Shown: piece after piece, positions 51,074 to 53,949 of the stretch
Numbering within the stretch: position 1 is the first letter of the stretch
Layout of the letters: each line of letters starts with the position of its first letter
Notes under the pieces: generated by a model
Databases searched by the model: none
Told to the model about the DNA's origin: nothing
The model's input: the letters and a program-made list of their open reading frames with translations, nothing else
Translations under genes and position numbers: made by a program
Source of the DNA: Ostreococcus lucimarinus
Lineage: Eukaryota
Assembly (NCBI GenBank): GCA_000092065.1
Contig: CP000590.1
Length of the DNA: 64,000 nucleotides
Strand: one strand, 5' to 3'

Positions 51074-51129
51074 GACGCGCGCGCCGCGCTCTATCACCGT
51101 CGTTTTCGCTCTACATCCGTCGGCGGACG

Positions 51130-51142
51130 ATAACCCTAAATC
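51130..51142. promoter_or_regulatory. Telo-box-like AACCCTAAA motif about 60 bp upstream of the TRM10 start codon
   Basis: gataaccctaaatc read directly. Confidence 0.35.
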
Positions 51143-51321
51143 AGAAGGAGATTATTTGTTACACAAAATTGTTCACGACTACGACGCGAAGACATATAAA
51201 TAGAGCGCTCAAGACTTGGTAAACGACCGTCCGCGCCCCGAAACGCGGCGTCACACGCGCGCGCGGGACCACTCGCGAGCGAACGAACGAACGAGCGACA
51301 CGTTTCAAATTTCTTTTCTTC

Positions 51322-51477
51322 ATGGCGTGCGATAAGTGCGGCGACGCGTGCGCGTGCGGCCCGGGTGCGTGCGCGTGCGCGAGCGCGCTGACGTGTCATG
51401 CGTGCGGGCACAAGAGTTGCGGCTGCGCGCGATGTAGATGCGCGTGCGATTCGTGCCAGTGCCAGACGAAGAAGTGA
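51322..51477 (+). CDS. Candidate metallothionein-like small Cys-rich protein (51 aa, 15 Cys), not in the >=60-aa ORF track
   Basis: MACDKCGDACACGPGACACASALTCHACGHKSCGCARCRCACDSCQCQTKK. Repeated CxC/CxxC pairs. ATG in TTCATGG context. TATAAATA at 51197..51206 (~115 bp upstream). Sits alone in a 370-bp gap between the TRM10 promoter and TRAP1. Caveat: GCGTGC-rich DNA can yield Cys-Ala runs by chance. Confidence 0.35.
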   Translation: MACDKCGDACACGPGACACASALTCHACGHKSCGCARCRCACDSCQCQTKK

Positions 51478-51686
51478 TGATTGCGTCACTTTTTTCGTCG
51501 GCGCATTCCGCCGCGCGCGCTCGGGGCGCGAGTTCCGAGGGCGACCGCGGAGGATGCGACCGAGGGCGACCGCGGAGGATGCGACCGAGGGGAAGGATGA
51601 AAGTTACCGTGGCAACACTCAATAGCAGTGCTTTTCAATCAATCAATACACGATTTTCCACTGAAACAACTTTTTAATGAATAATA

Positions 51687-51706
51687 CTAAACCCTAAACC
51701 CTAAAC
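51687..51706. repeat. Interstitial plant-type telomere repeat (CTAAACCCTAAACCCTAAAC, ~3 units) in the TRAP1 promoter
   Basis: Direct reading, 140 bp upstream of the TRAP1 ATG. Confidence 0.7.
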
Positions 51707-51846
51707 TAAGTAAGGCGTTAATGAATAATAAGGCGTCGCGCGCGTCTTTGTATGGGTCGGTCGGTCGGTGTCGCGTCGCGTCCTTCGCGCGTCCACGGCG
51801 TTCGCGACGCCGAAATCCGCGTCGCACGACGACGCGGATTTCGGCG

Positions 51847-53949
51847 ATGCTGACGGTGGCGCGCGCGTGTCGACGGCGCGCCGCGCGCGCGGTCCGGCGC
51901 GGCGTCGCGGACGCGCGCGCGACGCGCGGGGCGTCGACGACGACGGATCGCGCGTGGGACACATCTTCATCATCTGCGTCGGCGTCGGCGCGGACGTCGA
52001 CGGCGCGGACGACGAGGCGCGGACGGGCGACGGAGCGCCTGGCGTTCCGCGCGGAGACGAAACGATTGCTGGACATCGTGACGAACTCGCTGTACGAGGA
52101 CAAGGAGGTGTATCTGCGAGAGCTGGTGTCGAACGCGAGCGACGCGCTGGAGAAGGCGCGACACGCGGCGCTGACGGAGACGCCGAACGAGGAGGAACTC
52201 GCGATAAAGATCGCGACGGATGAGGGCGAGGGGAAGGTGCTGGTGGTGTCGGATAACGGGGTCGGGATGACGCGGGAGGAGCTGATGGAGAATTTGGGGA
52301 CGATCGCGCGGAGCGGGAGCAAGGCGTTTTTGGAGGGGTTGGACGCGGACGCGGACGCGGCGTCGAACATCATCGGGAAATTCGGCGTGGGGTTCTACGC
52401 GAGTTTCATGGTGAGCGATAAGGTGGAGGTGATCTCGAACGCGGGCGCGCGAGGGGATGGGAAGGCGTGGAAGTGGAGCTCGACCGGGGATGGAGAGTTT
52501 ACGATTGAGGAGGCGACGGAGAGCGACGAGGCGCCGACGCGGGGGACGAAAATCGTGATGCACATCAAAAGCGACGATAAACACTTGACGTCCAAGTGGG
52601 GGGTGGAGACGGTGCTGAAAAAGTACAGCTCGTTCGTCGCGTTCCCGGTGCTGTTGAATGGGCACAAGATGAACGACGTCGGGGCGCTTTGGATGAAGGA
52701 TGAAAAGGACATAACCGACGACGATTCCATCGCGTTTTACCGCTTTGTGAGCGGCGCGAGCGACATGCCGCCGTTTCGCATGTCGTTCAAAGCCGATGCG
52801 CCCATGACGATTCGAAGCTTGCTGTACTTTCCCGAAGAAAATCCCGAACGCGTCGCCGGATTCGGCGGGCAGACGAATTCGGGCGTGTCGCTGTACGCCA
52901 GGCGCGTGATGATTCAAGAGAAGACGGAAAAATTGCTCCCGGCGTTTTTGCGCTTTGTGCGCGGCGTGGTCGATTGCGAAGACATCCCGCTGAACATCTC
53001 GCGCGAGTCGCTTCAAGATTCCATGCTCGTCATGCGGCTCGGCCAAATAATCACAAAGCGCGTGCTCAAGTTTTTGGATGAAAAGGCGAAGAAGGAGCCG
53101 GAAAAGTACAACAAATGGTTCGCCAATCTCGGCTTCTTCTTGAAGGAGGGCGTGTGCTCGGAGTACGCGTACAAACTCGAACTCGCAGAGCTGTTGCGTT
53201 ACGAATCGAGCTCGACGGAGACTGGAAAATTGACGTCTTTCCGCGAGTACGCCGCGCGCATGCCCGAGGGACAAGACAAAGTGTATTACATCGTCGCGCC
53301 GTCGCGGCTGCAAGCCGAAGCGTCGCCGTATTTGGAAGCGGCGAAGTCGCGGGGCTACGAAGTTTTGTTCTTGTACGCTCACATCGATGAGTTCGTGATG
53401 CAGCACTTAATGAGCGTCGCGGGCAAGCAATTGGTGAGCGTTGAAGCCGCAAATCTCGACGTCGACGGCGAAAAAGCCGACGGTGAAGAGTCAAAATCAA
53501 ACGACGCCGCGGCGTTGGACGACGCCGCGGGCGCGGAACTTTGTAAGTGGTTCAGCGACGACGCTCTCGCGGGAAAGCTCAAGGAGGTGAAGCTGAGTAA
53601 CAGATTGGTGAGCTCTCCCGCGCTCATCTCCGGACACGAGCCCGAAGCCATGAGACGGTACCGCATGGTTCAAACCATGGCGAGCGACGCGGCGGCGAGT
53701 AAAAAGCTCGCCGAGATGTCCAACGACTTCTCCATGATGACGCTCGAGTTGAATCCGAAACACGAAATGATCAAAAGGATCAACGCCGCGCGCACGAGCG
53801 AAGACGCCGGCACGCGAAGATTAGCCGCGCTGGTCGCCGAACAAATATTTGACAACGCGCGCGTCGCCGCGGGATCTTTAGACGATCCTCGAGCGATGCT
53901 CGGTCGTCTGAACGAAATTCTCGAAAAGACGCTTCCGGCGAAGGAGTAG
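51847..53949 (+). CDS. TRAP1: Mitochondrial HSP90 paralogue TRAP1
   Basis: Extended collinearity with TRAP1: FRAETKRLLDIVTNSLYEDKEVYLRELVSNASDALEKARH, GTIARSGSKAF, IGKFGVGFYASFMV, LRFVRGVVDCEDIPLNISRE, KLTSFREYAARM, NPKHEMIKRIN, DPRAMLGRLNEIL. Arg-rich presequence. Start at the first ATG 51847; the ORF-track start at 51721 is non-ATG. Confidence 0.9.
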   Translation: MLTVARACRRRAARAVRRGVADARATRGASTTTDRAWDTSSSSASASARTSTARTTRRGRATERLAFRAETKRLLDIVTNSLYEDKEVYLRELVSNASDALEKARHAALTETPNEEELAIKIATDEGEGKVLVVSDNGVGMTREELMENLGTIARSGSKAFLEGLDADADAASNIIGKFGVGFYASFMVSDKVEVISNAGARGDGKAWKWSSTGDGEFTIEEATESDEAPTRGTKIVMHIKSDDKHLTSKWGVETVLKKYSSFVAFPVLLNGHKMNDVGALWMKDEKDITDDDSIAFYRFVSGASDMPPFRMSFKADAPMTIRSLLYFPEENPERVAGFGGQTNSGVSLYARRVMIQEKTEKLLPAFLRFVRGVVDCEDIPLNISRESLQDSMLVMRLGQIITKRVLKFLDEKAKKEPEKYNKWFANLGFFLKEGVCSEYAYKLELAELLRYESSSTETGKLTSFREYAARMPEGQDKVYYIVAPSRLQAEASPYLEAAKSRGYEVLFLYAHIDEFVMQHLMSVAGKQLVSVEAANLDVDGEKADGEESKSNDAAALDDAAGAELCKWFSDDALAGKLKEVKLSNRLVSSPALISGHEPEAMRRYRMVQTMASDAAASKKLAEMSNDFSMMTLELNPKHEMIKRINAARTSEDAGTRRLAALVAEQIFDNARVAAGSLDDPRAMLGRLNEILEKTLPAKE

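Follow-up and report, generated by a model that had tools for sequence, protein, structure and literature searches.

An operational definition of metallothioneins (MTs; Ziller & Fraissinet-Tachet 2018, quoted in PMC7216689) covers proteins of at most 300 amino acids with 15–35% cysteine, less than 10% aromatic residues and CxC or CxCxC motifs. The same review, published in 2020, counts one GenBank protein annotated as metallothionein in Ostreococcus, which is left unspecified, and none in other Mamiellophyceae. We found no study of a Mamiellophyceae MT in the literature, and MTs are almost uncharacterised in marine picophytoplankton. Among the described systems that invite comparison are the plant type-4 (Ec) MTs, such as wheat Ec-1 (PF02068; PDB 2KAK, 2L61 and 2MFP). 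These proteins of ~80 amino acids carry 17 Cys in three Cys-rich regions (6+6+5 Cys) with Cys-free linkers, and two conserved His in the sequence ...GEH..CGCGEHCGC.... Plant MTs of types 1–3 and algal MTs such as that of Fucus (PF01439) are likewise MTs of eukaryotic phototrophs: they have two Cys-rich ends and a long Cys-free spacer, and often contain aromatic residues. The cyanobacterial and bacterial SmtA–BmtA MTs are short peptides that bind Zn through Cys and His; in SmtA there are 9 Cys along with aromatic residues, and part of the fold resembles a zinc finger. In yeast, CUP1 is an MT gene whose copy number and location shift through tandem amplification and extrachromosomal circles.

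Here we describe an open reading frame (ORF) of 51 codons in a 64-kb stretch of Ostreococcus DNA (64,000 nucleotides, hereafter the window), which encodes the peptide MACDKCGDACACGPGACACASALTCHACGHKSCGCARCRCACDSCQCQTKK. Like the Ec-type MTs, the peptide is small, aromatic-free and of the green lineage, and the potential ligands in both are Cys together with conserved His. Their N-termini are alike: MACDKCG...CxC.GPG..CxC in the peptide and MGCDDKCGC...CPGG..CRC in wheat Ec-1. A stretch of the form G-H-x-x-C-G-C...CxC..CxC is common to the peptide and the Ec type, and GHKSCGCARCRCACDSCQC in the peptide resembles EHTTCGCGE-HCGCNPCAC in wheat Ec-1. The differences are nevertheless substantial: the peptide has 51 residues, 15 Cys and one invariant His, is missing a third Cys-rich region and any Cys-free linker, and carries its Cys in one continuous run, and the Cys spacing of its N-terminal block is unlike that of the Ec type.

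The other systems are more distant. The peptide shares CxC motifs with the type 1–3 and algal MTs but is Cys-rich throughout; it does not match PF01439 (Metallothio_2), and its alignments to these MTs score z <1.4 against shuffled sequences. With SmtA it has C-G-H-x-x-C-x-C in common (CGHKSCGC in the peptide, CGHTGCNC in SmtA). The alignment is not significant (z=1.8), there is no Pfam match, and neither the aromatic residues nor the fold element of SmtA are evident in the peptide. Cup1 shows no sequence similarity to the peptide (z=0.1). The likeness to CUP1 lies in structural polymorphism, which in Ostreococcus takes the form of presence or absence at one site, three different neighbourhoods and a permuted copy; unlike at CUP1, we saw neither circular DNA nor a tandem array of the Ostreococcus gene.

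Composition and class membership of the peptide

The first-pass annotation of the window had proposed an unannotated ORF with 29% Cys as a candidate MT gene, and its position, translation and composition are all as claimed (Table 1). The ORF ends in a TGA backed by a second in-frame TGA. Cys accounts for 15 of the 51 residues (29.4%), there is no F, W or Y, and the only hydrophobic residues are M1 and L23. Among the 271 ATG-initiated ORFs of at least 40 amino acids in the six frames of the window, the runner-up has 11% Cys, and only one other stop-free 51-residue segment in the window has at least 9 Cys, with exactly 9. The Cys content of the ORF is thus a more than 2.5-fold outlier within the window. 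The Cys residues are arranged as CxxC-x3-CxC-x4-CxC-x5-CxxC-GH-x2-CxC-x2-CxCxC-x2-CxC (spacing 2-2-3-1-4-1-5-2-4-1-2-1-1-2-1-4), that is, in five CxC or CxCxC units and two CxxC, and the longest stretch free of Cys is 5 residues. The start context, which had been called good, reads ttcttcATGG: the G at +4 bears this out, the T at −3 does not.

Table 1. Features of the locus in the window, and the clades of its homologues
Feature	Position	Strand	Remarks
Lineage-specific block filling the TRM10–TRAP1 divergent intergenic region	51080-51801	.	722 nt, against 91 nt in L008
Segment X, containing TATAAATA	51152-51219	+	Corresponds to L026 5406-5476, 88.7% (blastn)
Relocated gene unit	51222-51607	+	~100 nt leader, CDS and ~130 nt 3' region
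Conserved upstream element, promoter or 5' leader	51247-51300	+	Near-invariant in four clades with unrelated surroundings
CDS of the 51-aa Cys-rich peptide (MT-like gene)	51322-51477	+	ATG to TGA; from translation and homologues
Conserved 3' region, presumed 3' UTR	51478-51607	+	94% identity to clade B, 72% to clade C (first 100 nt)
Right flank of the block	51608-51801	+	AT-rich in the first ~120 nt, GC-rich near the right junction
Clade A			Window type
Clade B			L009, L024-L032
Clade C			L018-L021; 50 aa
Clade D			L010, L022-L023, L033-L037

In terms of the operational definition, the peptide is far below the size limit, lies within the range of Cys content with all 15 Cys invariant in 10 distinct peptides, is devoid of aromatic residues and has its Cys in the expected motifs. 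Together with the conserved Cys pattern, these properties lend support to the candidate-MT reading of the first-pass annotation. Known families do not accommodate the peptide. An exact look-up found no entry for it in a collection of 15 billion proteins (the TRM10 and TRAP1 proteins encoded on either side gave no match either), and a word-indexed homologue search with the peptide returned nothing. With the peptide or its alignment as the query, no Pfam, NCBIfam or PDB-profile match was obtained at E<=10. Specifically, representatives of the four clades described below did not match PF02068 at E<=10 (gathering threshold 31.8 bits), whereas wheat Ec-1 and Arabidopsis MT4a, included in the same run as controls, score 92–94 bits.

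We compared the peptide with twelve textbook MTs, as a lead only; the wheat Ec-1 sequence was verified against PDB 2KAK, 2MFP and 2L61, and PF02068 served to confirm both Ec-type sequences. Wheat Ec-1 gives a Smith–Waterman score of 102; composition-preserving shuffles average 61.6 (z=4.5), and none of the 500 reaches that score. For Arabidopsis MT4a z is 2.2, and for all others of the twelve it is below 2. An hhalign comparison with the Ec-type MTs gives a probability of 9.5% (P=0.0034) over 18 columns. Since the PF02068 threshold is missed, the hhalign probability is low and the architecture differs, homology to the Ec type is unproven. The peptide may best be described as MT-like with its nearest, weak likeness to the plant type-4 (Ec) MTs, and would constitute a sequence family of its own within the MT class; no HMM or profile places it in a known MT family. 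The AlphaFold single-sequence model (pLDDT 61, pTM 0.30) contains no confident autonomous fold, and low confidence is what is expected for an apo-metallothionein.

We estimate with a probability of roughly 0.7 that the ORF is a gene and that its product acts as a metallothionein. As such, the peptide of 50–51 residues would be cytosolic, as no signal peptide precedes its MACDKC start, and with no hydrophobic core it would fold only around metal ions. The 15 Cys thiolates and His30 would form metal–thiolate clusters with ~5–6 Zn(II) or Cd(II), or with more Cu(I), and the peptide would buffer essential Zn and Cu and sequester toxic Cd and Cu. That the His is conserved and that the peptide weakly resembles the plant Ec-type proteins would make zinc the favoured metal, an expectation for which His-containing MTs form the background.

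An unlikely alternative is that the gene encodes a real Cys-rich micro-protein that is not a metal store: a zinc-ribbon-like regulatory or interaction protein, a thiol redox or ROS scavenger, a Cu or Fe–S chaperone-like protein, or a disulfide-rich peptide. The absence of sequence membership in any MT family would suit such a protein, and CxxC pairs with a conserved His occur in zinc fingers too. Against this, 16 potential ligands in 51 residues far exceed the need of a zinc finger, the peptide has no core, and its pattern resembles specifically that of the Ec-type MTs. A secreted disulfide-rich peptide is made unlikely by the missing N-terminal signal peptide, and AlphaFold shows no confident fold of the zinc-ribbon or knottin kind. 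The GenBank MT entry from Ostreococcus may be the same gene in another species. Short Cys-rich genes are systematically lost in annotation, and this conserved, selected 51-aa candidate, missed by gene callers, offers an opening onto Zn, Cu and Cd buffering in a minimal-genome alga.

Conservation of the reading frame in Ostreococcus

A phmmer search of 1.84 billion representative proteins recovered two real matches, P0121 (E=9.5e-18) and P0122 (E=1.4e-10). Both are over-extended prokaryote-style gene calls, with the peptide as their C-terminal 50–51 residues. Scanning JGI metagenomes with a degenerate pattern confirmed 25 loci, in all of which the frame is open: 20 complete copies are intact, and the other 5 lie on contigs that end inside the ORF, with no stop or frameshift in the part present. 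Further haplotypes carrying the gene (L012, L038–L040) were found through TRAP1-anchored look-ups. Overall, an intact homologue is present on ~30 contigs (among them loci L009, L010, L012–L032 and L038–L040), all of them metagenomic and assigned to Ostreococcus by flanking-gene similarity and GC content. They represent 12 distinct coding sequences and 10 distinct peptides, which fall into four clades (A–D, Table 1). The gene has so far been seen only in the genus Ostreococcus.

The peptide is 50–51 amino acids long in every clade. Without exception, the four clades keep the ATG and M1, each of the 15 Cys and His30, and the stop shifts by no more than one codon. Of the 150 aligned nucleotide columns 44 are variable, and the variation is distributed unevenly: Cys codons show no change at any of their 30 first and second positions, compared with changes at 24 of 68 such positions elsewhere (Fisher P=3e-5), while the third positions of Cys codons toggle between TGC and TGT at 4 of the 15. 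Between clades the ORF is 80–83% identical without a single gap, and the 150 nt on either side of it are 29–72% identical with up to 17 gaps. The dN/dS ratio, computed over only ~150 nt, is 0.16–0.35 for all inter-clade pairs, and it is near or above 1 in some very close pairs with 5–7 substitutions.

Two antisense frames are likewise stop-free across the ORF in every clade. This follows from the GC-rich composition and means that an open frame alone proves nothing. The periodic variation is specific to Cys codons and fits the sense frame only: the TGC/TGT changes would be non-synonymous if read in the antisense frames. Judged from these substitution patterns, the gene is under purifying selection, and the ORF is very probably a real protein-coding gene. 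The first-pass annotation had looked to relatives for a conserved ORF with synonymous-biased substitutions, and for frameshifts, stop codons or loss of the Cys pattern as signs to the contrary. In the four Ostreococcus clades we found the former and none of the latter: ORF, frame and Cys pattern are kept, with synonymous changes in Cys codons and dN/dS in the range given above.

It is very unlikely that the conserved entity is a non-coding element (a promoter, UTR or structured RNA) in which the open frame is incidental. The conservation of the leader motif and of the 3' region, described below, would be in line with such an element, as would the open antisense frames. The conservation is nevertheless codon-periodic, with TG invariant in 15 of 15 Cys codons and a third base of C or T. 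Start and stop are kept, and the 153–156 nt between clades are free of indels, which are many in the flanks. No Rfam family matched over the ORF, and the antisense reading of the Cys codons fails for the reason stated above.

The TRM10–TRAP1 site and relocation of the gene unit

In the window, the ORF lies between TRM10 (Pfam PF01746), on the minus strand with its ATG at 51073-51071, and TRAP1/HSP90 (PF00183), on the plus strand with its real ATG at 51847, 370 nt downstream of the ORF. The TRAP1 protein is 79% identical to that of O. tauri and 97–99% identical to metagenomic proteins, one of which clusters with an NCBI entry. A longer TRAP1 ORF starting at 51721 is a spurious in-frame extension that begins in inserted AT-rich DNA: the inserted block creates a false upstream ATG for TRAP1. 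The gene order CP12-like, TRM10, TRAP1, TFIIS, FHA is common to O. tauri and several metagenomic Ostreococcus lineages. From the TRAP1 identities and this gene order, the window belongs to a nuclear chromosome of Ostreococcus with ~60% GC. The Cys-rich ORF is absent from the syntenic TRM10–TRAP1 gap in O. tauri (L001), L002–L004, L005–L007, L042/L043 and L008. The site is empty both in L042/L043, a lineage with a 557-kb contig that is 87–91% identical to the window, and in L008, which is 98–98.7% identical to the window over 6.7 kb. Comparison of these haplotypes shows that the block was inserted into the TRM10–TRAP1 region recently. The placement of the ORF alone between the two genes, as first annotated, is correct as to the neighbours, and the gene is a recent arrival there and not an old resident. 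Because a close haplotype lacks it at this site, the gene may be dispensable, or it may lie elsewhere.

Occupied haplotypes are common and differ from each other (L012–L017, L038–L040). The fullest ones, L038 and L039, contain 62 nt of ancestral spacer followed by a block of ~0.94 kb. This block opens with an AT-rich stretch of ~234 nt; segment X and the gene unit come next, and ~190 nt of flank close it. The window lacks 296 nt on the left, having lost both the 62-nt spacer and the ~234 nt of AT-rich DNA, and in L016/L017 the left end of the block differs. The right flank, with a GC content of 0.28–0.44 in 50-nt bins, is present in all occupied haplotypes and absent from the clade B, C and D loci and from the empty sites. 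Tandem Repeats Finder detects in it the telomere-type heptamers CTAAACC x2.9 at 51687-51706, together with AATGAATAATA repeats; the heptamer stretch is deleted in L016. We asked whether the telomere-like AACCCTAA on the flanks of the block marks an insertion, and rejected this: the motif occurs at four other sites in the window and is enriched there generally (7 observed, 0.27 expected).

Absence from the syntenic site at first appeared to count against conservation and turned out to reflect relocation. In blastn and tblastx comparisons, the gene unit is the sole part of the window shared with the clade B, C and D loci. It is 94.5–95.6% identical to clade B (L026 4897-5261 at 94.6% by blastn). 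Clades B and C have the gene downstream of a common gene set (83.5% nucleotide identity over 5.4 kb), and in clade D it occupies a third neighbourhood. The unit and its upstream motif are the only sequence common to three unrelated neighbourhoods, which argues for an independent gene. A- and B-type contigs never came from the same sample, a hint that there may be one copy per genome.

This arrangement bears directly on the possibility, which we regard as highly improbable, that the ORF is a uORF of the TRAP1 mRNA or belongs to its 5' leader. The ORF is on the same strand as TRAP1 and close to it, and the spurious in-frame extension of TRAP1 reaches 51721. In clades B, C and D, though, the unit is away from TRAP1, in clade B the next downstream gene is convergent on it, and the TRAP1 genes of empty-site relatives work without it. 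Scarcely credible is a chance ORF in low-complexity GC-rich DNA of the (GCGTGC)n type, the caveat of the first-pass annotation: the genome is ~60% GC, a composition that yields many long spurious ORFs, and at 51345-51387 Tandem Repeats Finder reports an array of (CGCGTG)x6.7, which is weak (score 38, 72% matches), but the array spans 43 of 156 nt and so accounts for a minority of the ORF, the Cys content is the outlier noted above, and the intact frame in four clades and three genomic contexts effectively refutes this explanation.

The independent gene has also been rearranged relative to segment X. The segment lies directly upstream of the unit in the window and ~145 nt downstream of it in clade B, and the window copy is circularly permuted with respect to clade B (X+unit against unit...X). 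The permuted order suggests that the unit was copied where two tandem duplicates meet or was re-integrated from a circular intermediate; either route would explain the two arrangements. Hallmarks of a transposable element or mobile cassette were looked for and not found: neither end of the ~0.94-kb block of L038 shows terminal repeats or a convincing target-site duplication, the 64-kb window holds no other copies of the block or its flanks, and the coding capacity of the block is limited to the 51-aa ORF, with no transposase. A scan of viral contigs for a prasinovirus origin gave no confirmed match.

We propose tentatively, as a rather doubtful scenario, that the MT-like gene travels as a sub-kb cassette by way of a tandem-duplication junction or an extrachromosomal circle; this would be compatible with the family being a distant sister of the plant Ec-type MTs. 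Were the cassette scenario true, presence/absence and positional polymorphism in natural populations could tune metal tolerance, as CUP1 does in yeast, and such dynamics would operate in a free-living eukaryote whose genome ranks among the smallest. Were the sister relationship true, the origin of the Ec type would move towards the base of the green lineage. The presence or absence of the gene between 98.7%-identical haplotypes and its clade-specific locations provide natural material for the study of gene relocation and possibly of local metal adaptation.

Sequences upstream and downstream of the gene

The first-pass annotation assigned the gene a TATA box of its own. The motif TATAAATA is indeed present at 51195-51202, 120–127 nt upstream of the ATG, and conservation is lacking: L016/L017 have TACAAATA, L012 has CTAAAATA, a deletion there removing the TATA, and the motif is altered in clade B as well. 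Segment X, which contains it, follows the gene in clade B and has no counterpart in clades C and D. We therefore rejected the TATA motif as the conserved promoter of the gene, as it is altered or missing in the other haplotypes and clades.

A GC-rich motif, GCGTCACACGCGCGCGCGRGACSACTCGCGAG followed by CGAA repeats, is common to all clades 43–68 nt before the ATG. In the window its core CACGCGCGCGCGGGACCACTCGCGAG occupies 51254-51279, ahead of a (CGAA)n run. These 26 nt occur nowhere else in the 64-kb window, with 0 occurrences expected by chance. We infer that the motif may serve the gene itself as a promoter or leader element. On the other side of the gene, clades A, B and C share ~95 nt of conserved sequence past the stop, and the 3' region cannot be aligned in clade D. 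Hairpins and a consensus fold predicted for the 3' region show no covariation or compensatory changes. The region also contains a perfect 25-nt tandem duplication at 51535-51591 (Tandem Repeats Finder).

Structural haplotypes of the TRM10–TRAP1 spacer

The spacer between TRM10 and TRAP1 exists in at least five structural haplotypes within approximately 2% sequence divergence. Most haplotypes that carry the inserted, lineage-specific block with the Cys-rich gene also have an AT-rich segment of ∼234 nt between TRM10 and the gene unit; this segment is deleted in the window, and nothing matching it is present there or at the loci of the other Ostreococcus clades (B, C and D). In the empty-site allele (L008), the place where other haplotypes hold the block contains a direct repeat of a short sequence, GTCAAATCGC ... 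GTCAAATCGC. This repeat may be either ancestral or a footprint left by excision.

Coordinates of features in and around the TRM10–TRAP1 spacer
Feature	Sequence	Position	Remarks
AT-rich segment	L012	1-243	
AT-rich segment	L013	77-372	
AT-rich segment	L014	3628-3897	
AT-rich segment	L038	1945-2240	
Direct repeat GTCAAATCGC ... GTCAAATCGC	L008	1436-1461	empty-site allele
Octamer AACCCTAA	window	51132, 51690, 51697	flanking the inserted block
Octamer AACCCTAA	window	13374, 27715, 30984, 31002	outside the block; apparently non-coding (judged by eye)
Tandem duplication, CCGAGGGCGACCGCGGAGGATGCGA x2.3	window	51535-51591	25 nt, perfect; after the Cys-rich ORF, in its presumed 3' UTR
Inverted repeat	window	51799-51855	26 nt, 85% complementary, 5-nt loop; end spans the TRAP1 start codon

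Repeats around and within the Cys-rich gene

The telomere-type octamer AACCCTAA occurs seven times in the 64-kb window against an expected count of 0.27, and three of the seven copies flank the inserted block. It was not found in the clade B, C or D loci. The octamer resembles the 'telo-box' promoter motif of plants or, alternatively, interstitial telomere repeats of short length. Downstream of the Cys-rich ORF, the CCGAGGGCGACCGCGGAGGATGCGA repeat is present as a single copy in clade B, and its copy structure varies among the sister haplotypes.

In five independent clade D metagenome contigs (L033-L037), the Cys-rich ORF is interrupted by the contig end. Short-read assemblies seem to be broken by the GCGTGC-rich coding sequence of this gene, and such breaks may contribute to its going unnoticed.

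The start of TRAP1 and its inverted repeat

The apparent TRAP1 ORF starts at an ATG at 51721, where the inserted block is AT-rich. In relatives that lack the block, TRAP1 begins at the position equivalent to 51847 (MLTVARA...). The upstream ATG is an annotation trap: 51721-51846 would add 42 spurious N-terminal residues to a mitochondrial presequence.

The inverted repeat at the TRAP1 start codon is also kept in the empty-site relative. Compared with Rfam, it gives a sub-threshold match to MIR7486, a plant miRNA precursor family (34.6 bits; gathering score, 67). The repeat may form a hairpin that controls translation, or it may have arisen by chance in GC-rich DNA.
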